Assembly: GCA_003223395.1 (NCBI GenBank)
Contig: QHUZ01000036.1
Location: 627-64,626 of the forward strand
Source of the DNA: Gemmatimonadota bacterium
Lineage (GTDB): Bacteria > Gemmatimonadota > Gemmatimonadetes > Gemmatimonadales > GWC2-71-9
Direction: 5' to 3'
Length of the DNA stretch: 64,000 nt
Positions 1,682-38,754 of the stretch are shown one piece after another; within the stretch, counting starts at the first letter, position 1; the number at the start of each line of letters is the position of its first letter. The translations under genes were made by a program, and so were the position numbers. Below the pieces are notes generated by a model. It was not told the DNA's origin. It worked only from the letters and a program-made list of their open reading frames with translations, and made no database searches.

Positions 1682-3060
1682 TGCCGCACCCGAAATCCCC
1701 GGACCGCGAGGTCCGCCTTGATGCCATCAACCGTGTCGTCGCCATCGTGAAAGACCGATGCCGCCAGGACAGCGTCGGCCCCTCCGGCGAAGGCCGCGGC
1801 GACATGCGCCCGCGTTCCGACGCCGCCTGAAGCGATCACTGGGACCCGAACCGCGTCGGACACCGCGCGTAGCAGGTCGAGATCGTGCCCCACCCGCGTG
1901 CCGTCGCGATCCCAACTCGTGAGCAAGATCTCGCCCGCGCCAAGATTCTCACCTTCACGGGCCCACGCCACCGCGTCGGGCCGTGCGATCTCGCGGCCCC
2001 CGATCACCAGCACTTGCCAGTTCTCCGCCGCGCGCCGCGCATCGATCGCGAGCACGACACATTGGCGGCCAAAGGCCTGCGCCAACTCGGTCAGTAGCTC
2101 AGGACGACGGACCGCGGCCGTGTTGACGCTCACTTTGTCGGCGCCGGCGGCGAGCAGCTGCCGCGCATCGTCCACGCTGCGAACGCCGCCGCCCACGGTC
2201 AGTGGAATCCGGATCGCCGCACGGACCCGCCGCACCGTCTCGACCTGCGTGTCGCGCCCCTCGGCGGAGGCTGCAACATCGAGGATCACGATCTCGTCGG
2301 CGCCCTGCGCTTCGTACCGCGCCGCCTGCTCAGCGGGGTCGCCGGCGTCGCGCAGATCCTGGAAGCGGATGCCTTTGACAACGCGGCCGTCTTTCACATC
2401 GAGGCACGGAATGATGCGCCGAAACAAACCAGGCGATCCGTTCCCGGGGATACCCTCGGAGACCGGCCGCCCCGTCAGCCAGCGCTCCAGCAGCGCGGCG
2501 CCATACGCGCCCGACAGCTCCGGGTGAAACTGGCATGCGACCGTGGGTCCGCGTTCGAGCGCGGCAATGAACGGAACACCGTGCGTTGTCCAAGCCGGTG
2601 TCCATCCGTCTGGACTCTCGCACAACGCGTAGGAGTTGGCGAAGGCCGCGACGCCGCTCGTCACACACCGCGCTCCCGGCTCAGCCGTGACGCTGTTCCA
2701 GCCGAGGTGTGGGATTCGCACGGAGGGTGGCAGACGTCGACACGTTCCCGCCACAACGCCGAGCCCTCGGACTCCCGGCGCCTCCTCACTCGCGTCGCAG
2801 AGCATCTGCATCCCGAGACACACGCCGAGCAGCGGCGTTCCGCGGAGAGCGACATCGCGAATGATGATATCGAGACCCCGGGCGCGGAGCGCCGCCATGC
2901 CCGCGCCAAACGCGCCGACGCCCGGCAGGACGAGGCGCGCCGCGGTCCGCACGACGTCGGGGTCGGCGGTGACGGCGATCGTCGCGTTCAGACGGCGGAA
3001 CGCGCCGGCGATCGAGGCGAGGTTTGCAACCCGCGAGTCCACAATCACGAGCTCACTCAC
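1678..3060 (-). CDS. hisHF: imidazole glycerol phosphate synthase, fused HisH (glutaminase) and HisF (cyclase) subunits
   Basis: The track ORF 1678..3393 is over-extended. GTG at 3060 (VSELVIVDS) sits 8 nt inside the hisB end. HisH motifs are GVCLGMQML and QFHPE. A linker [16 protein letters not shown] is followed by HisF motifs [16 protein letters not shown] and [11 protein letters not shown]. Confidence 0.85.
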
Positions 3061-3658
3061 GCGGCTTCCCCAGCGTCCCTTTGGTGGATGGCACGTCGTC
3101 GAACGGTGTGATCTGTACGGCCTGCCGCAGGGCGAGGGCAACGGCCTTGAACGCCGCTTCCGCGCGATGGTGGTCGTTGGCTCCCTTGATGACCTCGACG
3201 TGCAGCGTGAGTCGCGCTGCCGTCGCGAGCGAGCGCAACACGTGCGGCACATTCTCGCAGGACAGACCGCCAATCGATTCCCGGCGCAGACCCAATGACA
3301 CGTCAGCGTACGCGCGACCGGAAAGATCCACCACCGCCCGGGCGAGTGATTCATCGAGCGGCGCATAGGCCCACCCGAAGCGGGCAATGCCACGCCGCTC
3401 GCCCAGTGCGCGGTCGAGCGCCTCGCCCAGCGTCAACGCGCAATCCTCCGCGGTGTGGTGATCGTCGACTTGGAGATCGCCGCGCGCTTCGACGGTGAGA
3501 TCCAGGCGGGCGTGGCGGGCCAGTGACTCCAGCAAATGGTCGAGAAAGCCGACGCCGGTGCGGATTTCGGTCCGCCCCGACCCGTCGACGGTAACCTCGG
3601 CGCGGATGGACGTCTCCCGCGTGGTACGTTCCGCGTTGGCTGTCCGGTCAGGCTTCAT
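3053..3658 (-). CDS. hisB: imidazoleglycerol-phosphate dehydratase
   Basis: 201 aa with [21 protein letters not shown] and [12 protein letters not shown] motifs. ATGA overlap with the hisC stop. Confidence 0.95.
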
Positions 3659-4665
3659 AGCGCGGGAGCCTCCTGCCCGAGCACCGACTCGAGCGCAGCG
3701 CTCAGACGCGCATAATCAGCGGGGTCCCCGGGCAGCGTGATTCTCAGACTCGTCTCGAGACCCGCGCGACCAGGGAAGTCGCGAACGAGTACTCCGCGCG
3801 CGCGGAGTCCGTCGCGGACGAAAGTCGCGCTCCCCCCGAAGTCCGCAAGCACGAAGTTCGCCTGTGAGGCGCGTGCAGCGGCGCCACGTGACACCAGCAA
3901 ATCACGAAGCGTCGCTCGTTCTTCGCGAACTCGCGTGACGTGATCGCGCAGAGTTGCTTCGCCAGCCCGCAATCGTGCGAGTGCCAGAGCGAGTGAGGGA
4001 GCCGCCACAGGATATGGCGCGCCCGCAGATCGTACTACAGCGATCACACTCAGGCTGCCGATCGCGTAGCCCACGCGGCACCCCGCCAGACCCCAGGCCT
4101 TCGACATCGTTCGAACGACTATCACGTTCTCGAGATCGAGCAGTGCGGGAGTGAGATCCTCGTCGGCGTACTCGACGTATGCGTGATCGATCAGCACCAC
4201 GGCGTTCCGAGCTGCGGCTGCGATGCGGCGCACGTCCTGCCGCGATGCGACCGCGCCCGTGGGGTTGTTGGGGGTCACGACGACTACGACGCCTGTGCGG
4301 GCGTCGAGGCGGCCGAGGACGTCGTCGACCGGAAACCCATTCTCGGGCCACGGCACTCGCACAATCGGCGCCCCAGCGAGTGCGGCGAACCGCTCGAACA
4401 TGTCGAAAGTGGGCACGGGGAGCAGCACTGAGCGATCGGGACCTGCATACGCCCGGCAGATGCGATCGAGCGCTTCATCGGCACCGGCCGTGACGACCAC
4501 ACGGTCAGGCGTCACGTCGATCCGGTCAGCGAGCGCCGCTTCGAGCACCGACGAATCGGAGTAGCGTCGAAGCAGCTCCGGGTCCAGCGCCGCCAGCTCG
4601 GCGAGCAGGGCTCGCGGTGGTGGCGGGCCTTCGTTGCTGTCGAGACGCAGGAGGCGCGCGCTCAT
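3655..4665 (-). CDS. hisC: histidinol-phosphate aminotransferase
   Basis: In-frame ATG at 4665 (MSARLLRLDSNEGPPPP) gives an ATGA overlap with the hisG stop. PLP lysine motif TMSKAWGLAGCRVGY is present. The upstream 62 codons of the track ORF overlap hisG. Confidence 0.85.
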   Translation of the reverse strand: MSARLLRLDSNEGPPPPRALLAELAALDPELLRRYSDSSVLEAALADRIDVTPDRVVVTAGADEALDRICRAYAGPDRSVLLPVPTFDMFERFAALAGAPIVRVPWPENGFPVDDVLGRLDARTGVVVVVTPNNPTGAVASRQDVRRIAAAARNAVVLIDHAYVEYADEDLTPALLDLENVIVVRTMSKAWGLAGCRVGYAIGSLSVIAVVRSAGAPYPVAAPSLALALARLRAGEATLRDHVTRVREERATLRDLLVSRGAAARASQANFVLADFGGSATFVRDGLRARGVLVRDFPGRAGLETSLRITLPGDPADYARLSAALESVLGQEAPAL

Positions 4666-5555
4666 GGCACGATCTGCGAGAGTGTGGAGACGACAACGTC
4701 GGTGCCGCCGGCCGCTTTCACCGCCGGGATCACTTGCGGCAGCAGCTCGCGCGGCACCGCGGCCTTCACTGCGTATCCGGTGTCGCCAAACAGCCGTGAT
4801 ACTGTCGCTTGTCGCATGGACGGCAGGACGGCCACGACCGCGTCGAGACACGCCGCCGAGGCGTTCACCTCCAGCATCACGCGGCGCCGCGCCTCGAGCA
4901 CGGAGTTTATCAGCAACACCAGATCGTCGATGAAGCGTCGCCGCACCGGATCATCGAGGGCCGCACGGTGGGCATACAGTCGCGTGGACGAGCGCATCAA
5001 CACATCGACAATCGCGAGGCCGTTTGCCCCGAGCGTCGCACCGGTTGCGGTGTTGTCGACGATCACGTCGGCGTCCTCGGGCGGAAACACTTCGGTCGCA
5101 CCGTAGGACCGAACGAATTCGGCGCATAAGCCGCTCGCGCTGATCCAGCGCCGCGCCAGTCGATCGTACTCCGACGCAACGATCAGGCGACGCTTGGGCA
5201 GTTGCCCGCCCTCGAGCAGCGCGACCGGCGCGGCGGCGACCAGCTGCACCGGATCGAGCCCCGTGTCGAGCAACTCGACGACGTCCGCGCCGCCCGCGCT
5301 GCCCTCGAGCTCCGCCACCCAGTCCGCCCCGGCGAAGCCCACGTCGCGGCTGCCGAGGGCCAGCATCTCCACGATGTTCTGGGGCTTCAGCATCTTCGCT
5401 TCGGCGCCCGCCAACGACACATCGGGCCGATAGCCGCGGGCGCTTGGGCGCACGCGAATGCCCGCGTCGGCGAGAAGCGTCAGGACGGCCTGCTCCATGC
5501 GGCCTTTGGGAAGGCCGAGCCGGAACGGGACAGCGCGTGGGACAAATGTGGACAT
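4662..5555 (-). CDS. hisG: ATP phosphoribosyltransferase (long form)
   Basis: Start at ATG 5555 (MSTFVPRAVPFRLGLPKGRM) with GGAG 9 nt upstream. About 297 aa, including a C-terminal regulatory-domain-like region. Confidence 0.9.
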   Translation of the reverse strand: MSTFVPRAVPFRLGLPKGRMEQAVLTLLADAGIRVRPSARGYRPDVSLAGAEAKMLKPQNIVEMLALGSRDVGFAGADWVAELEGSAGGADVVELLDTGLDPVQLVAAAPVALLEGGQLPKRRLIVASEYDRLARRWISASGLCAEFVRSYGATEVFPPEDADVIVDNTATGATLGANGLAIVDVLMRSSTRLYAHRAALDDPVRRRFIDDLVLLINSVLEARRRVMLEVNASAACLDAVVAVLPSMRQATVSRLFGDTGYAVKAAVPRELLPQVIPAVKAAGGTDVVVSTLSQIVP

Positions 5556-31909: not shown

Positions 31910-32416
31910 TTGACCTCAAGACGCCTGCTCATCGGACTGTCATCGCTGGTCGTCATGCTCACCATCGCGGGTGCGGTGAGCTTCGTGCGCTACGCGCACC
32001 GGCACACGCCCGACCCGCAGCTCGCCGCGGTTGCGCCGTTCGATATCTTCGTGACCGGCCTCGAACCGTGGCGCGTGCGACTTGCCCAGGGGCTGACGGC
32101 GCAGCTCGACAGCTTGCCGCCGCTGGCCGCCGTCTCCCAGGACGTCGTGCGGGAGCGGTGGCAGGGGCAGTCCAGCCCCGCGCTCGCGGCGATGGATCTC
32201 GCGCGCCGCACGAGCGCCGGCCTCGCGATCTATGGCCGCCTCGACCCGGTTGCGACGAGCCGCGACTCGGTTCGGGTGCAGATGATCCTCGTCGCGTCGG
32301 GCGACGGGCGCGTGCTCCTCACGAGCGACCGGCCCTGGGCCGTCGCCGACCTGGAATGGCTACCCCGGGCGCTCGCAGAGCAGGTGCGCCAGAACTATCG
32401 TTATCCACGTGACTAA
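31910..32416 (+). CDS. membrane-anchored hypothetical protein resembling the extracytoplasmic domain of the downstream kinase
   Basis: TTG start, one TM helix, then AVAPFDI...GLTAQLDSL...GLAIYGRL...VRVQMILV. This parallels residues ~335-460 of the kinase at 32409. 8-nt overlap with that kinase. Confidence 0.6.
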   Translation: MTSRRLLIGLSSLVVMLTIAGAVSFVRYAHRHTPDPQLAAVAPFDIFVTGLEPWRVRLAQGLTAQLDSLPPLAAVSQDVVRERWQGQSSPALAAMDLARRTSAGLAIYGRLDPVATSRDSVRVQMILVASGDGRVLLTSDRPWAVADLEWLPRALAEQVRQNYRYPRD

Positions 32417-34892
32417 TCCGTTTGCAGAATTGAACGCCGCGCTCCCCGGTCATTACGTGATCGATCGGGAGCTGGGTCGCGGCGGGATGGCGTTGGTGTA
32501 CCTCGCGCGCGACACGCGCCACGAGCGCTTCGTCGCGCTCAAGACGTTGCGGCCCGAGATCGCCATCGCGCTCGGCCGCGAACGGTTCCTGCGCGAGATC
32601 AGACTCGCTGCGCGCCTGCAGCATCCCAACATCCTGCCGGTCTACGATTCGGGCGATGCGGGCGGCACGCTCTACTACGTCATGCCGTTCGTCGAAGGTG
32701 AATCCCTACGCGACCGGCTCGACCGCGAGCCACAGCTGCCGGTGGACGATGCGCTGCAGATCGCGCGCGAAGTCGCCGACGCGCTCGCGTATGCGCACGA
32801 CCACGACGTCGTGCATCGCGACATCAAGCCCGAGAACATCATGCTGTCGGGCGGTCATGCGATCGTCGCCGATTTCGGCATCGCGCGCGCCGTCAGCGCC
32901 GCGGGCGGCGACAAGCTGACGCAGACCGGACTCGCCATCGGGACACCCGCGTACATGCCGCCCGAGCAAGCCTCGGGCTCGGGACAGGTGGATCGCCGCA
33001 GCGACATCTACAGTCTCGCGTGCGTGCTGTACGAGACGCTCGCGGGCCAGCCGCCGTTCACCGGCCCGACCGCGCAAGCGATCATGGCGCGGCACTCGCT
33101 CGACGCGGTGCCGCGGCTCAAGATCGTGCGCGACGCGATTCCGGACGAACTCGAAGTCGTGATCGAGCGCGCGCTCGAAAAAGTGCCCGCCGATCGGTAT
33201 CAAACATCGGGAGAATTCGCCAAAGCACTCACCAACGCGAGCACCGGCCAGGTCTCGCGGGTCACCGCGGCACGGCGGACCCACTCGCGGAAGCCGTGGC
33301 GCCGTCCGATTCCCGTGGCGATCGGCGTCACGCTCCTGGTCGGGGCCGCGGCCCTGGCGATCGCGCTCGCACCACGTGGAAACGGAGGCAGCGCCGCACC
33401 GGGCATCGATTTGCGTCGCGTCGCGGTGCTCTACTTCCAGGATCTGAGTCCCGACAGCACGCTCGGCTATCTTGCCGACGGACTCACCGAAGGACTGATC
33501 GATCAGTTGTCGCAAGTCCGCACGCTCGACGTCATTTCACGCAACGGCGTGCTGCCCTTCCGTAACTCCGATCTGCAGCCTGACAGCATCGCGCGAGCGG
33601 TTGGCGCCGGAACACTGGTCGAAGGCAGTCTCGAGCCGGTGCGCGATCGCGTCCGAGTCACGGTGCGACTGGTGGACGGGGCGACCGGCGGCGATCTGCT
33701 GGCGCGCGCCAGCTTCGAAGCATCGGCCGGCAATCTTCTCGTGATCCGCGATACGCTCGCGACTCAAGTCGCACGCGTATTGCGCGAGCGGCTCGGGCAA
33801 GAAGTGCGACTGCGCGAGGAGCGGGCCGGTACGAGAAGCACGGCCGCGTGGACGCTCGTGCAGCAGGCCGAGCGGATCCGCAAGGATGGGGAAGCACTGG
33901 TGCCGGCGGGAAAGATGGACGCCGCCAATGCGCTGTTCGGCCGCGTCGATTCCCTGCTGACGGCAGCCGAGCGCGCCGACCCGCGGTGGGTCGACCCGAT
34001 CGTGCTGCGCGGTCAGCTCGTCGAACGACGCGTCCGGCTCACCCGCAACGCGGCCCTGATAGACGAAGGGCTTGCACACGCCGGCCGCGCGCTCACCCTC
34101 GCACCGCAAGACCCACCCGCCCTGGAATTGCGCGGCACACTGCGCTATCGGCGCTGGCAATTGGCTCGCCCGTCCGATCCGCAACAGGCGAGCGCGCTGC
34201 TCGACGATGCGCGCGGCGATCTCGAGCGCGCGACCAATATCGATCCGACGCTGGCGGGCGCGTATGCCACGTTGAGCAGCCTGTATTACCAGACCAAGGA
34301 TTTGCCGGGGGCCGCGTTGGCGGCCCGGCGGGCGTACGAGGAGGACGCGTATCTCAGTAATGCATCGGATATTCTCTACCGGTTGTTTTTCACGTCGTAC
34401 GATCTCGACCAGCAGCGCCAGGCGCAGCACTGGTGCCAGGAGGGGACGCGTCGCTTTCCGCGGGATTTCCGCTTCCTGGAGTGCCAGCTTTACATGATGA
34501 CTCGCGGGGAGCAACCGGACGTTCCTCGTGCCTGGCGACTGCTCGCGGGAATCGATTCCCTCGTGCCGGCCCCCCGGCGGCCGGTCTTCCATCTGCGCGA
34601 GCAGATGATGGTCGCGGCCACCATCGCCCGCGCCGGCCTGAAAGACAGCGCGCATGCCGTGATTGAGCGCTCGCGGGGGACACCAGAGCTCGATCCCGAG
34701 CACGATCTGGTCGCCCTGGAGGCGTTCGTCCGTACGCTCCTGGGCGAGCAAGATGAGGCTATCCGTTTGCTACAGCGCTACGTAGCCGCTAACCCCGAGC
34801 ACTCTTTCCAGGTAGGGGGCGACGTCTTCTGGTGGTGGTGGGACCTCCGGGAGCGTCCGGGCTTCCAGGCGCTCGCTCGACCCCATTCGTGA
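32409..34892 (+). CDS. Ser/Thr protein kinase with TM helix, TolB-N-like periplasmic domain and TPR-like C-terminal region
   Basis: Motifs GRGGMALVY, HRDIKPEN, DFGIA, PPEQ. TM helix around residue 305. VAVLYFQDLS...GLTEGLIDQL. Confidence 0.85.
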   Translation: MTNPFAELNAALPGHYVIDRELGRGGMALVYLARDTRHERFVALKTLRPEIAIALGRERFLREIRLAARLQHPNILPVYDSGDAGGTLYYVMPFVEGESLRDRLDREPQLPVDDALQIAREVADALAYAHDHDVVHRDIKPENIMLSGGHAIVADFGIARAVSAAGGDKLTQTGLAIGTPAYMPPEQASGSGQVDRRSDIYSLACVLYETLAGQPPFTGPTAQAIMARHSLDAVPRLKIVRDAIPDELEVVIERALEKVPADRYQTSGEFAKALTNASTGQVSRVTAARRTHSRKPWRRPIPVAIGVTLLVGAAALAIALAPRGNGGSAAPGIDLRRVAVLYFQDLSPDSTLGYLADGLTEGLIDQLSQVRTLDVISRNGVLPFRNSDLQPDSIARAVGAGTLVEGSLEPVRDRVRVTVRLVDGATGGDLLARASFEASAGNLLVIRDTLATQVARVLRERLGQEVRLREERAGTRSTAAWTLVQQAERIRKDGEALVPAGKMDAANALFGRVDSLLTAAERADPRWVDPIVLRGQLVERRVRLTRNAALIDEGLAHAGRALTLAPQDPPALELRGTLRYRRWQLARPSDPQQASALLDDARGDLERATNIDPTLAGAYATLSSLYYQTKDLPGAALAARRAYEEDAYLSNASDILYRLFFTSYDLDQQRQAQHWCQEGTRRFPRDFRFLECQLYMMTRGEQPDVPRAWRLLAGIDSLVPAPRRPVFHLREQMMVAATIARAGLKDSAHAVIERSRGTPELDPEHDLVALEAFVRTLLGEQDEAIRLLQRYVAANPEHSFQVGGDVFWWWWDLRERPGFQALARPHS

Positions 34893-35055
34893 CGTAGCTC
34901 ACAAAACCCGTGACCTACCTCACTTCTTGACGGGTCGCCATTTTGGCGCCCTTTTTACTCCGCACCGCGAAAACCGTAGTCAAGCAGGCCGTCGCAACCG
35001 TCCCAGATTCGCGCCCAGCTGGGGGTTGTACTAGGCCCCAACTGGGAGTCGCCCT

Positions 35056-36231
35056 ATGAATCGAATCGCCTTGCTGTCTCTCGTTCTTGTCGGAATCGTC
35101 GGCTGTCGCGCAGATCGGGCGTTACCGCCAGGACCGTCGGCGGAAATCCAGGACGCAACGCACCTCAATGGTAACTCGTTTTTCTTTTGGCTCCCACCGA
35201 CCGTAAACCAGCACGCTCCATCAAGCCAAGTCTTCTCGAGCAAACTCCGCCCGGTGATCACAATCGTCGACCAAGGACCTGCCGGCGCAGCCTCGGCCAA
35301 CTGCCATGCCGGCAGCACGCTGCGCACGTTCTCCGGGTCCGACATCACGGTGAGCAACGCGGCCTACCATGCGAACTGGCGCACCGACCAGGATGCCCTC
35401 TACCCGGAGTGCACGTATCGCATCACGGTAAACGTCGGGCCGAGACTGAATTCTCCAGAGCTGGGTTATGCGGACGTCGATGTCGTAAGCAGTGGTCGGC
35501 AGCTAAAGAACGTCGATACCGACGAATTTATTCCCCTGCTCGATGATCGGACGTTGCCGATCACGTTTTTCATCGGAGTGGGAGCGACCTGCAGCCGAGA
35601 CGGGGGCTCGGACTGCGGGGAGGGGGTGGCAAAGCCGGGTGAGAACACGCTCATTGTCACCAACAGCGGCAACGCGGGTGTGTTCATTCCCGCGGGTGCG
35701 GTCGATGGTGAAACCACCATCACCATCCAGTCAGTCGACCAGCGATTTAATGAGGGCCAAGAATGCATTCCGCGGTTGGCCGACCAATTCCCCGGCACGC
35801 CAAAGACACTCGATAACGGCTGTTACGACTTCCGCGCCGACCCGCCGCTCGCTGACGTCAACGACAATGGCGGCACCTTTAATGCAGGGTTCAACGCGAC
35901 CGTCGGGATCTGCCCGCCGACCGCCGCAATGAACCTGGATCATGGGACGCTCGATCGGATTCAGCTCTTCCGGATCGATGATCTTGGCGAGGGAAATGCC
36001 GTCGCGCTCGCCGACGTCCAGGCCCCGTTCCTGCGTTGCGACCCTCACTACTCACCATCGTTTGGATCGCGCGGCTCGCTCTTTGGGGACTTGGCGCGAG
36101 CGTTGGCGGGTATCGTCAGTCCGCGCCCGCTCTACGCGGGCACCCGGCGCATGATGTTTGATGTGGGCGCCGGCGGCAGCACGGATGGCTTCAGCCGTTT
36201 CGGGTGGGCTCTGCCGTTCAGCATCCAGTAG
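35056..36231 (+). CDS. Cys-rich lipoprotein of unknown function (paralog 1)
   Basis: Lipobox LVGIVGC. No recognisable domain. About half of the positions are identical by eye to the next gene. Confidence 0.7.
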   Translation: MNRIALLSLVLVGIVGCRADRALPPGPSAEIQDATHLNGNSFFFWLPPTVNQHAPSSQVFSSKLRPVITIVDQGPAGAASANCHAGSTLRTFSGSDITVSNAAYHANWRTDQDALYPECTYRITVNVGPRLNSPELGYADVDVVSSGRQLKNVDTDEFIPLLDDRTLPITFFIGVGATCSRDGGSDCGEGVAKPGENTLIVTNSGNAGVFIPAGAVDGETTITIQSVDQRFNEGQECIPRLADQFPGTPKTLDNGCYDFRADPPLADVNDNGGTFNAGFNATVGICPPTAAMNLDHGTLDRIQLFRIDDLGEGNAVALADVQAPFLRCDPHYSPSFGSRGSLFGDLARALAGIVSPRPLYAGTRRMMFDVGAGGSTDGFSRFGWALPFSIQ

Positions 36232-36240
36232 GACAATTCA

Positions 36241-36271
36241 GGGCGGCTCTTTGGAGCCGCCCTTCCTTTAC
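36241..36271 (+). terminator. intrinsic terminator
   Basis: gggcggctc-tttg-gagccgccc followed by ttcctttacc. Confidence 0.7.
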
Positions 36272-36394
36272 CTCATTCCTTGGATGTAGCTCCAACGTCC
36301 GGTCCTCAATCCATCTCTCGTCTGATGGTTTTTCCCCGCGCGGTATTTATTCATCTATTTCCATGTTGCGACTGAGCCCTTTCTCGACGCGGAC

Positions 36395-37999
36395 ATGAAG
36401 TATCCAGGATTCGTAGTCGTCGTTGTGCTTGGAGCCGTGGCGTGTCACGGCGACCGCAGCTACTCGGCAGGCCCGTCCTATCTGATCCAGGATGGCGGCC
36501 ACGCCGGTGGCAATGCGTTTTTCTTCTGGCTCCCGCCGGTCATGAACCAGCAGCAGGCAGCCGGGCAGGTGTTCTCCCGGCAGCTGACTCCGACCATCAC
36601 GATCAGTAATCTCTGCACCGGCGACGTCATCCGCAGGTTCGCGGGCTCCGACGTGCAAGTCGAGGACGGTCAATATCACGCCAACTGGCATACCCCCGAC
36701 GACAACCTCGACCCCGCGTGCACGTACCGCATCGCCATTCAGGCCGGTGCGCGACAGCTCGGGGTGGCCGATGTGGACGTCGCCGATAATGGCTCGGAAC
36801 TCAAGAACGTCGACACAGACGAGTTCATCTCGCTGCTCGACGACCGCACACTCCCGATCAAGTTCTTCATCGGAGTCGGCTCACAATGCGAGCGCTCCGA
36901 TTCGGATTGCGGCGAAGGCACCGCGCAGCCGGGGGCAACCACAACCATCGTCACGGAAAATGGCCAGGCCGGGGTCGTCATCCCGGCAGGCGCGGTGGAC
37001 CAACCGGTTACGATCATCATCGAGTCCGCGGACGATCGCCCCTGCATTGCAGGCTTGCTCGAGCCGGTGTACTCGGGAAGCATCGGGGCGATCGGCAATT
37101 CGTGCTACGATTTCCATACGGAGCCGCCGCTGGCCGAGATCAACGCAAGCGGGAAGTTCAACACCAACGTCACGGTCGGGATCTGCGCGGACGTCGGGAA
37201 TCTCGATCATGCGACGCGGGACTTGCTCCAGATTTTCCAGCTCCACGCCGGAACACAGCTCTTCGCGCTGAATAACGTGCCCGCTCCGTTCCTGCACTGC
37301 GATCCGGCGTATCAACTCCTCGGCTCGCGTCCCCCCCCCTCCCGGTTGGGGAACCTGCTGGCACGACTCGGCTCCCTCTTCATGCCGCGACCGCTCTTCG
37401 CCAAGACAACCGCCGCGTTTGATGTCGGCGCCGGCGGGAGTACGGACGTCTTCAGCCGCTTTACCTGGGCGCTGCCGAGCGAACTCAACCTGAATTTCGA
37501 TCAAGCGCCGGATCTGGGCGCGATCTTGCCCGGAGCTGTCGTCAACACGGTCTACGCCCGGCTCGGCGTCACGTTCAGCCGCAGCAATACGCTCGGCCTC
37601 TGCCCGGGTACCGCGGTCTATGCCAACGACTACGGCTTACTCGCACCCCAGTCCGGTCAAAACAACATCAGCGTCTGCCCCCTGGGGATCGCCTCGGACT
37701 TCAGTGAATACGGATACGGGACCATCACGGCGACATTCGTCAAACCGGCCGTCCGGGCGTGCATTTCGGCGACACCGACGGGATTTCACAACCTCTTCCC
37801 GGGTGGCGTGGCGTTCCTCGAGGCCCTCGACGCCAACGGCAATGTCATCGGCAGGACCGAATCGACGACCCAGCGAGCCCCTCAGCGGCTCTGCGTCCAG
37901 GGCGACGGCATCGCCGCGGTGCGGTTCGCGGGCGAGGGTGGGGCATTCGCCATCTTCGACGACCTCCAGTGGACGCGCGCGTTGCCGGCCATTCCGTAG
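36395..37999 (+). CDS. Cys-rich lipoprotein of unknown function (paralog 2, with ~150-aa C-terminal extension)
   Basis: Lipobox-like LGAVAC. Shares FFFWLPP, YHANW, CTYRI, KNVDTDEF..LLDDRTLPI.FFIGVG, SDCGEG, CYDF, VGIC and FDVGAGGSTD.FSRF.WALP with paralog 1. Confidence 0.7.
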   Translation: MKYPGFVVVVVLGAVACHGDRSYSAGPSYLIQDGGHAGGNAFFFWLPPVMNQQQAAGQVFSRQLTPTITISNLCTGDVIRRFAGSDVQVEDGQYHANWHTPDDNLDPACTYRIAIQAGARQLGVADVDVADNGSELKNVDTDEFISLLDDRTLPIKFFIGVGSQCERSDSDCGEGTAQPGATTTIVTENGQAGVVIPAGAVDQPVTIIIESADDRPCIAGLLEPVYSGSIGAIGNSCYDFHTEPPLAEINASGKFNTNVTVGICADVGNLDHATRDLLQIFQLHAGTQLFALNNVPAPFLHCDPAYQLLGSRPPPSRLGNLLARLGSLFMPRPLFAKTTAAFDVGAGGSTDVFSRFTWALPSELNLNFDQAPDLGAILPGAVVNTVYARLGVTFSRSNTLGLCPGTAVYANDYGLLAPQSGQNNISVCPLGIASDFSEYGYGTITATFVKPAVRACISATPTGFHNLFPGGVAFLEALDANGNVIGRTESTTQRAPQRLCVQGDGIAAVRFAGEGGAFAIFDDLQWTRALPAIP

Positions 38000-38017
38000 G
38001 CGACGCGTAACGACGAA

Positions 38018-38052
38018 GGGGCGGCTCCGCGCGGGCCGCCCTTCCTTTTTCT
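38018..38052 (+). terminator. intrinsic terminator
   Basis: gggcggc...gccgccc stem followed by ttcctttttct. The sequence is related to the terminator at 36241. Confidence 0.65.
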
Positions 38053-38078
38053 GGCTGCGGGCCTCCTATTCTGCCGCG

Positions 38079-38754
38079 ATGGCTCGCGAACTGATCGGAC
38101 GGGTGCGCCAGGCGCTGGGCGACCGCTACAACGTCATCACGGCGGTGGGCCGCGGATTACCTGCTCTGGTTCGTGATGCCCTTCGTCGCCGGAGAAACCC
38201 TGCGCCAGGTGATGCGGCGCGAGCGCACGCTCCCGATCGACCGCGCAGTGCGCGTCGCCACGGACGTGCTCGACGCGCTCGGCCACGCGCATGACCACGG
38301 CCTCGCGCACCGCGACATCAAACCCGACAATATCGTCCTCTCGGCGGACGGCGGCGGCGCCATTCTCGTGGACTTCGGAATTGCGCGCGCGATCGCCAGC
38401 TCGGGCGAAGACCGGGTGACGCGCAGCGGATTCGTCGTAGGCACCGAGGAATACATGAGCCCCGAGCAGGCGGGCGGCTCTCCCGATATCGACGGCCGGA
38501 CCGACATCTATTCCCTCGGCGTCGTGCTGTTCGAGGCGCTCGCCGGCCGGCCGCCGTTCGCCGCCGCGAGCGCCGCCGCGGTGCTCGACATGCAACAGCA
38601 CGCGCCGCCGCCCGATCTCCGGAAGCTGCGGCGTGACACGCCGCGGGCGCTCAGCGATACCGTGATGAAGTCACTTTCCAAAGCACGCGAAGCGCGCTGG
38701 CAAACCGCCGCCGATATGCGGCAAGCATTGCTCCCCTACGCCGCGGCGACGTGA
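38079..38754 (+). pseudogene. Ser/Thr kinase remnant with internal deletion of the N-lobe plus a frameshift
   Basis: ATG 38079 encodes MARELIGRVRQALGDRYNVITAVGRG (kinase N-terminus up to the Gly-loop). The reading then jumps to frame +1, YLLWFVMPFVAGETL...HRDIKPDN...DFGIA...SPEQ (track ORF 38173..38754). Confidence 0.6.

Follow-up and report, generated by a model that had tools for sequence, protein, structure and literature searches.

Cysteine-rich lipoproteins encoded beside a receptor Ser/Thr kinase in Gemmatimonadales: possible co-sensors in an exchangeable cassette

The locus and its two lipoproteins

We analyzed a stretch of 64,000 nucleotides (hereafter the window) from a Gemmatimonadota bacterium (assembly GCA_003223395.1, contig QHUZ01000036.1, positions 627 to 64,626), in which two adjacent genes, named here lipo1 and lipo2, encode cysteine-rich lipoproteins that may act as partners of the receptor-type Ser/Thr kinase encoded directly upstream of them. 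All coordinates are those of the window, whose GC content is 63-70%, and all the features described lie on its forward strand. The two open reading frames (ORFs), of 391 and 534 amino acids (aa), were found at the positions and with the lengths given in the initial annotation: lipo1, the short paralogue, occupies 35056..36231, and lipo2 is made of a core as in lipo1 (residues 1-365, 36395..37489) followed by a C-terminal module (residues 366-534, 37490..37999). The 827-aa kinase has a cytoplasmic Hanks-type Ser/Thr kinase domain (32409..33263; Pkinase, E 3e-48, residues 16-265) and then a juxtamembrane segment, a transmembrane helix and an extracytoplasmic sensor (33264..34892). The helix, as read from the sequence, covers about residues 297-320, and the sensor consists of an alpha/beta part (RVAVLYFQDLS..LGYLADGLTEGL) followed by a part resembling tetratricopeptide repeats (TPR; residues 481-827), where the TPR matches in Pfam are weak. 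The flanks agree with their earlier description, since besides this kinase they comprise a broken gene for a 283-aa kinase, a Peptidase_S58 gene (hereafter S58) and the gene for a 605-aa lipoprotein.

The paralogy of the two proteins is clear (51% identity over 379 aa, E 2e-114), and the blocks quoted earlier as common to both are indeed present: FFFWLPP, YHANW, KNVDTDEF..LLDDRTLPI.FFIGVG, SDCGEG, IPAGAV, and FDVGAGGSTD.FSRF.WALP. Many of them are also invariant across an alignment of 80 homologues, to which the conservation figures below refer. Lipobox signal peptides were sought with either the strict pattern [LVI][ASTVI][GAS]C or the looser form of PROSITE PS51257, and both proteins have one, as had been claimed. 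In lipo1 it is the strict LVGIVGC, with IVGC placed after an n-region containing K/R and a hydrophobic core, and in lipo2 it is LGAVAC, whose AVAC fits the loose form only. The lipobox cysteine is conserved in at least 90% of the homologues, and by this criterion both proteins are predicted substrates of signal peptidase II, that is, bacterial lipoproteins. The eight shared cysteines of the initial annotation turned out to be invariant, besides the lipobox cysteine, in 80 of the 80 aligned homologues (C83, C119, C179, C187, C237, C256, C286, and C328 in lipo1; C74, C109, C165, C172, C217, C237, C264, and C302 in lipo2), a pattern that makes the four predicted disulfides in the core plausible.

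The residues that follow the lipidated cysteine, C-RADR in lipo1 and C-HGDR in lipo2, include one acidic residue each. The pattern C-[QR]-x-D-[RQ] at this place appears to be specific to the family: of 96 members, 91 carry an acidic residue between +3 and +5, and CxxD[RQ] is found in just 5 of the 162 crude lipoprotein candidates of the window's genome. The surface lipoproteins of Bacteroidota also form large families, with the export signal K-(D/E)2 or SDDDD at +2 to +6 (PMC5080379). The lipoproteins described here share with those of that related super-phylum a large family size, domains for binding and a conserved motif that directly follows the lipidated cysteine (PMC5080379). An export signal of the Bacteroidota type was nevertheless rejected, because there is one acidic residue where two are required (PMC5080379); at least two acidic residues within +2 to +6 occur in 12 of the 96 members.

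Fold of the core and of the C-terminal module

The two proteins had been described as lacking any recognisable domain or family, which stands for the core and goes slightly too far for lipo2, in view of its C-terminal module. Neither protein matched a Pfam family at E <= 0.1, the sole match in a scan of NCBIfam reached 10.8 bits against a cut-off of 850, and a profile of 80 homologues retrieved nothing from the PDB sequences even at E <= 10. AlphaFold2 models built from the homologue alignment had a pLDDT of 82.8 and a pTM of 0.76 for lipo2, and a pLDDT of 79.2 for lipo1. They lay out a disordered tether (residues ~11-37, about 20 aa), an all-beta region (~40-165) and a second, mainly-beta region (~170-300); further on come a low-confidence loop (~309-339 in lipo2) and closing strands formed by the FDVGAGGSTD.FSRF.WALP block, such that the core is modelled as a beta-sandwich. 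When the model of lipo1, the 391-aa core, was searched with Foldseek, the best E values were 0.03 in the PDB and 0.018 in a viral library, and weak matches of the core model resembling C2 domains were set aside as noise (probability <= 0.33).

The extra C-terminal module of lipo2 (residues ~366-534), on the other hand, is real and has a confident fold in the AlphaFold2 model, even though no Pfam model matches it. With the whole of lipo2 as query, the compact high-probability matches in Foldseek were jelly-roll domains resembling carbohydrate-binding modules (CBMs), about 150-200 columns long, and since the core-only model finds none of these, we assigned them to the module. Matches with a probability of 1.0 include the adhesin domain of gingipain K2 (3km5, TM-score 0.49), the carbohydrate-binding domain 8wc1 (TM-score 0.53) and CBM4-2 (2y6j); further ones are 8xmz, 4xup, several CBMs and the C-termini of phage tailspikes. 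The target-normalised TM-scores of these matches range from 0.40 to 0.53, with a sequence identity of just 10-14%. The modelled structure thus places the module among the CBM-like jelly-roll beta-sandwiches, with a galactose-binding-domain-like fold, and the module would probably bind a glycan or other surface ligand. As a separate observation, modules of this type, ~165 aa long, seem to be mobile, as they occur alone or elsewhere in otherwise unrelated proteins (P0153, P0155, P0216, P0218, and P0260). Those proteins match the module profile in two or three separate stretches, and one of them combines it with an NHL propeller and a weak hit to a T9SS sorting domain.

Association with the receptor kinase

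The initial annotation had proposed that the pair could be part of an uncharacterised envelope system associated with kinases, and a kinase gene was therefore looked for in distant loci. The lack of one in other genomes had been named as a result that would speak against the proposal, and it was not what we found. In 17 of 20 loci from other genomes, in which the lipoprotein is ~30-37% identical, a gene similar to that of the 827-aa kinase is found immediately 5' of the lipoprotein gene and in the same orientation; the encoded kinases, where they are full length on the contig, are 46-65% identical to the one in the window. The three exceptions are two extra copies of the family (L019 and L020; loci are numbered in this way throughout) and one contig end. 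Among 26 loci from named metagenome-assembled genomes (MAGs), the kinase gene is upstream wherever the sequence extends 5' of the lipoprotein slot. The pairing is kept across at least three different neighbourhoods, and because the remaining neighbours differ in the loci of other genera (a histidine kinase and EPSP synthase in two loci, UPF0182 and HipA in one), the pair appears to persist while its context changes. The window's genome encodes about 30 Ser/Thr kinases, of which just 2-3 have this full architecture, so that adjacency by chance is very unlikely. The pairing is conserved across rearranged neighbourhoods, as would be expected of a lipoprotein that acts as co-sensor of a kinase. 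Such a neighbour was found for 4 of 20 very distant members that share the N-terminal module only.

Two of these four loci, L026 (5825-7663) and L044 (8786-10645), bear on the part of the kinase to which the association belongs. Their lipoprotein genes are preceded by genes for proteins of 612-619 aa that have a transmembrane anchor, an alpha/beta part and a TPR-like region and carry no kinase domain; these proteins can be described as stand-alone 'sensor' proteins directly upstream of members of the lipoprotein family. As the kinase domain is missing from them, the conserved link is with the extracytoplasmic sensor and not with the catalytic domain. Taken with the 17 of 20 loci and with the co-variation of the sensor described in the next section, this supports the idea of an envelope system tied to kinases and narrows it down to the sensor half.

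The association does not extend to the genes on the other side of the pair. The downstream 283-aa kinase, S58 and the 605-aa lipoprotein go with the pair only in loci of its own genus and in close named MAG loci, and none of the three was seen beside it in the loci of other genera; for this reason we rejected them as parts of the same conserved module. This also bears on a very unlikely explanation, according to which the cysteine-rich core would be a new catalytic fold (e.g., a cell-wall or polymer hydrolase) or the cofactor of an envelope enzyme, with S58 and the 605-aa lipoprotein in the same pathway. The core does have many invariant polar residues (D33, N40, D171, D303, D343, S354, and R355), the CBM-like appendage of lipo2 resembles modules that are typical of glycoside hydrolases, and the two genes follow the pair in the window's genus and in most of the close named MAG loci. 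However, neither the PDB profile search nor Foldseek found similarity to any catalytic fold, the domains added to other members of the family appear to bind rather than catalyse, and the linkage with S58 and the 605-aa lipoprotein is lost in other genera, S58 being unmatched in several of the named loci as well.

A proposed variable cassette

When the window is compared with the related locus L001, nucleotide identity is ~90% through the kinase gene and again from about 36490, whereas it falls to 51-67% over lipo1 and the spacer behind it (about 35047-36343). In the same comparison, synonymous divergence (dS) and the ratio of nonsynonymous to synonymous rates (omega) are 1.25 and 0.26 for lipo1, 0.28-0.31 and 0.23-0.24 for lipo2, and 0.25-0.36 and 0.06-0.15 for the flanking genes; the lipo2 core is 87% identical to its L001 orthologue. 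Since the dS of lipo1 is four times that of the flanks at an omega of 0.26, these values point to an old allele brought in by recombination that would still be under purifying selection, and not to decay or rapid drift. Accelerated evolution of lipo1 was rejected on the same two values.

Identities to the window in eleven same-genus loci show which parts of the locus vary. The kinase domain of the 827-aa kinase (84-97%), the 283-aa downstream kinase (85-95%) and S58 (84-94%) change little, whereas identities span 92% to 45% for the TPR-like sensor (residues 481-827) and 88% to 28% for the lipoproteins. The edges of the variable island are sharp, one at about 33260 and the other at the junction between the lipoprotein and downstream-kinase genes, such that the gene for the 283-aa kinase forms the conserved downstream boundary of the variable slot. 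Against the type-II locus L017, for instance, nucleotide identity is 83-89% up to about 33260, where the kinase domain ends, and then falls. The slot itself holds one or two lipoprotein genes. In locus L073 (QHUE01000076.1), the matches to the lipoproteins at 2466-4967 are fragmented and overlapping, and could correspond to three family genes or to a rearranged or frameshifted copy.

Lipoprotein and sensor vary together. The Mantel correlation between their distances is 0.73-0.80, and it stays at 0.66-0.76 (p 0.0002) when the distance between kinase domains is controlled; the reverse partial correlation, for the kinase domain with the sensor controlled, is just 0.20-0.26. With 34 non-redundant loci r is 0.72, and 13 sensor types face 12 lipoprotein types nearly one-to-one. 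Loci L059, L064, and L063 (additional lipo2-like gene) repeat the pairings of sensor and first lipoprotein seen in L017 and L049. We propose, from these comparisons, that the part of the kinase gene encoding the sensor would make up, with the one or two lipoprotein genes, a single hypervariable cassette set against a constant kinase domain and constant downstream genes.

A cassette of this kind calls to mind the pherotype loci, such as comQXP of Bacillus and agr of Staphylococcus, in which a sensor and the product of an adjacent gene vary as a cassette around a constant cytoplasmic signalling part, the partner being a small diffusible peptide. The likeness lies in a sensor domain and an adjacent gene product that vary together between close relatives; the difference is that the partner here is a lipid-anchored protein of 390-540 aa and that the pairing is not strict. 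It is an unlikely thought that Gemmatimonadales could have a modular receptor system in which recombination fits a constant Hanks-type kinase chassis with matched cassettes, each of a TPR-like sensor and one or two large cysteine-rich lipoproteins whose fold had no match among solved structures or viral models, for the strain-specific recognition of an external or neighbour-cell ligand; if true, the pherotypes would have a protein-based, lipid-anchored counterpart, and bacterial Ser/Thr kinases a sensory partner of a new class. A related reading, in which lipoprotein and sensor would be a strain-specific ligand/receptor pair for self/non-self or kin-type signalling, we hold to be slightly more improbable. 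It would account for the sharp cassette boundaries, for the nearly one-to-one types and for allelic lineages as deep as that of lipo1 at one locus within a genus, but it meets several difficulties: nothing points to the lipoprotein being released from its own cell or arriving at another one, both proteins are of large size and anchored to lipid instead of diffusible, the pairing of types is imperfect, and an omega of 0.23-0.26 for lipo1 and lipo2 indicates purifying selection, with no positive selection at the whole-gene level.

Size, architectures and spread of the family

A word-indexed search returned 240 close homologues, all of them annotated as 'hypothetical' and none with Pfam domains. 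These fall into two length classes, short (~370-395 aa) and long (~530-555 aa). An exhaustive profile search of 1.84 billion representatives, where a representative stands for a cluster at 50% identity, gave 2,796 at E <= 1e-3 and 511 at E <= 1e-30. Most of the representatives listed are 500-1,500 aa long and have the N-terminal core behind a lipobox, with the motif ISDGAH.GGNP.FFFLPP; the strict lipobox pattern was present in 96 of 148 newly returned ones. Domains at the C-terminal side were scanned in 61 long members and include Big_1 in 23 and CARDB in 13, besides CarboxypepD_reg, RCC1, Kelch, NHL or PD40 propellers and Laminin_G_3 in others, so that the additions made by the family appear to be of the binding and not of the catalytic type.

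In the phylum, 92 of 401 genomes have a match. Full-length matches are found mainly in the window's own genus and in a few other genera, and in the other genomes the first ~160 residues alone head different architectures. The named relatives that carry family members are, all of them, uncultured soil Gemmatimonadales MAGs, and the window's genome has two copies only, lipo1 and lipo2. As a literature search found no paper on these lipoproteins, this is a large, undescribed family of envelope lipoproteins in Gemmatimonadota.

Transcription signals around the lipoprotein genes

Both lipoprotein genes are followed by terminator-like hairpins, and these are similar, much as claimed earlier, with GGGCGGCT..GCCGCCCT and then TCCTTT in common. 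The one 3' of lipo1 (36240..36269) reads GGGCGGCTC-TTTG-GAGCCGCCC followed by TTCCTTT; its hairpin (36240-36263) has a folding energy of -22.1 kcal/mol with a z of -5.5, and its T-run is weak. The one 3' of lipo2 (38017..38053) has a stem of 11 pairs (38017-38043) and then the T-run CCTTTTTCTG. The hairpin of lipo1 aligns with that of lipo2 and with both hairpins of L001, where the lipo2 hairpin is conserved.

Upstream of lipo1, between the kinase stop codon and the gene, there are two GTGA-N6-TCAC palindromes (34889-34902 and 34910-34923) whose starts are 21 bp apart. They are the sole exact matches to this pattern in the window, in which 0.69 would be expected, and relatives have palindromes of the type (T)GTGATCTAGATCAC(A) at the matching place, TGTGATCTAGATCACA among them. 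Palindromes of the TGTGA-N6-TCACA type correspond to the half-site arrangement of the CRP consensus, and the pair provides candidate sites for a CRP/FNR-type regulator that probably acts on lipo1. In the whole genome, 81 copies of GTGA-N6-TCAC compare with 10 of the reversed control, and this eight-fold enrichment would suggest that the uncultured bacterium has a CRP/FNR-type regulon of considerable size; one clear gene for an HTH_Crp_2 regulator is located on contig C89. One perfect GTGATCTAGATCAC is also found on contig C27. A different palindrome, TTGGATGTAGCTCCAA, with 5-bp arms and a 6-bp spacer, was read from the sequence upstream of lipo2 (36280..36295); similar sequences are at the matching place in L001 and L002, and it is possibly a second, putative operator. 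Because the genes have separate terminators and different upstream palindromes, this arrangement suggests that each lipoprotein gene could be its own regulated transcription unit.

Proposed role of the lipoproteins

The reading that we favour, to which we give a probability of roughly 45%, is that lipo1 and lipo2 are co-sensor lipoproteins, i.e., extracytoplasmic partners of the TPR-like sensor of the receptor kinase, encoded in a swappable cassette. Each lipoprotein would consist of a lipid anchor, a flexible tether of ~20 residues and a mainly beta-sandwich core of ~330 residues with eight invariant cysteines, and its partner would have the kinase domain in the cytoplasm, one transmembrane helix, and the alpha/beta and TPR-like sensor outside. 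The lipoprotein would bind a ligand or report the state of the envelope, the former perhaps by means of variable modules, of which the CBM-like domain of lipo2 would be one, and would dock on the TPR-like domain, thereby setting the activity of the kinase. Recombination would exchange the sensor half together with the lipoprotein gene or genes between lineages while the kinase domain and the downstream genes are kept, such that related strains would have different sensor/lipoprotein specificities on one signalling chassis. Each lipoprotein gene would be transcribed alone from its own terminator-bounded unit, with lipo1 under a CRP/FNR-type regulator acting at the two tandem GTGA-N6-TCAC sites.

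Several observations weigh against this proposal. With terminators of their own, the lipoprotein genes are unlikely to be strictly co-transcribed with the kinase gene. Lipoprotein types otherwise paired with sensor type 5 are found beside sensor type 3 as well (L048, L052, and L053), and so is a further lipoprotein type (L056 and L057), which makes two or three types overall for sensor type 3, and lipo1 has been exchanged without the sensor between the window and L001, where the lipo1 proteins are 57% identical and the sensors 92%. Linkage within a recombination hot spot can make adjacent DNA co-vary, much of the Mantel signal lies between genera, and about 15 of the 20 members with the N-terminal domain only, as well as the extra copies in L019 and L020, have no adjacent kinase.

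Some of these points would sit more easily with independent binding or adhesin lipoproteins that hold substrates or surfaces by themselves, as other surface lipoproteins with several domains do, and that neighbour the kinase only through a recombination-prone variable island or through control of their expression by the kinase pathway, with no direct partnership in sensing, an explanation that we find doubtful but worth serious consideration. It would be natural for proteins with their own terminators, separated by spacers of 160-190 bp with separate operator-like palindromes, and for a family with binding-type C-terminal domains, the CBM-like module of lipo2 being one more, in which many members elsewhere lack a kinase neighbour; the partial decoupling of sensor and lipoprotein types fits it too. 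What it does not readily explain is that immediate adjacency on the same strand is retained while all other neighbours change, even by the sensor proteins devoid of a kinase domain, and that the variable island ends exactly at the kinase-domain boundary without a gradual decay. Moreover, a periplasmic sensor is not under the diversifying pressure directed at the surface, and its parallel variability would need some other cause.

The route proposed from lipoprotein to kinase would resemble those of other lipoproteins that feed sensor kinases. In LpqB-MtrB, NlpE-CpxA, and RcsF-Rcs, an envelope lipoprotein is the outside sensor or modulator of a membrane kinase; the kinases there are histidine kinases, and each lipoprotein comes from a conserved single-copy gene and has an unrelated fold. 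Lipoproteins of this type are not known to be encoded in a swappable cassette with the sensor domain, whereas the ones described here would be, and with a Hanks-type partner.

The closest described logic seems to be, by analogy, that of GlnH-GlnX-PknG of Actinobacteria, in which the proposal is that a lipoprotein whose gene adjoins that of a Ser/Thr kinase senses amino acids and signals by protein-protein contact (PMC6069109). PknG has a TPR protein-interaction domain and its link with GlnH was first drawn from their conserved gene neighbourhood (PMC6069109), so that in both cases a lipoprotein gene adjoins the gene of a TPR-bearing kinase and the neighbourhood suggests the link. The differences are also considerable: GlnH is a classical solute-binding protein, whereas the core of lipo1 and lipo2 matches no solved or viral-model fold; PknG is soluble, with a cytoplasmic TPR, and needs the membrane protein GlnX, whereas the kinase described here spans the membrane and its TPR-like domain would be outside; and no hypervariable cassette is described for GlnH-GlnX-PknG in the abstract (PMC6069109). 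Lipoproteins that help a membrane kinase to sense are known; what would be new in our case is that the core fold is unmatched, that the kinase is of the Hanks type, and that sensor and lipoprotein are swapped as a cassette.

The activators of bacterial receptor Ser/Thr kinases are largely unknown, and almost no molecular work has addressed the Gemmatimonadota, a phylum abundant in soil. The locus offers a concrete, testable sensor partner for one type of kinase, and it defines a large lipoprotein family that lacks annotation, comprises about 2,800 clusters at an identity of 50%, and has a confidently predicted core fold with no solved analogue. It also presents a cassette architecture that would let the extracytoplasmic half of a kinase and the neighbouring lipoprotein be exchanged together and leave the cytoplasmic half in place. 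Should the partnership be true, it would lengthen the short list of lipoprotein-to-kinase sensing routes and give a handle on how sensing diversifies in soil bacteria.

Other genes around the pair

The broken gene downstream of lipo2 (38079..38754) encodes a cytoplasmic Ser/Thr kinase of 283 aa in related loci and was delimited by tblastn with intact orthologues. These match residues 1-26 in one frame and 85-283 in another, with a gap of 176 nt in the alignment; a deletion of this size takes out residues 27-84, which hold the VAIK/ATP-binding lysine region, and shifts the frame. The gene is intact in L001, L002, and L046-L049, judging from orthologues queried with the intact kinase or having a called gene, which are 84-95% identical, and the copy in the window may be a real pseudogene or an error in the assembly of the MAG.

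Beyond it come S58 and the 605-aa lipoprotein, the latter without a Pfam hit. Between the genes for the 283-aa kinase and the ~605-aa lipoprotein, tblastn found no S58 match in L061-L063, L072, L074, and L075, and because of these named MAG loci S58 seems to be facultative in its block; in L061-L063, the two genes are merely ~45 bp apart.

On the other side, the kinase gene is preceded by an ORF for a membrane-anchored protein of 168 aa (31910..32416), which overlaps the start of the kinase gene by 8 nt. In the window's genus and in close named MAG loci it precedes the kinase, with 63-93% identity among orthologues of same-genus loci, and it belongs to the context, outside the widely conserved pair of kinase and lipoprotein. 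It resembles the kinase sensor only marginally (56 residues, BLASTP E 0.12). Two metagenome loci show the whole order: the 168-aa protein, the 827-aa kinase, lipoprotein 1, lipoprotein 2, an intact 283-aa kinase, S58, and the ~605-aa protein.

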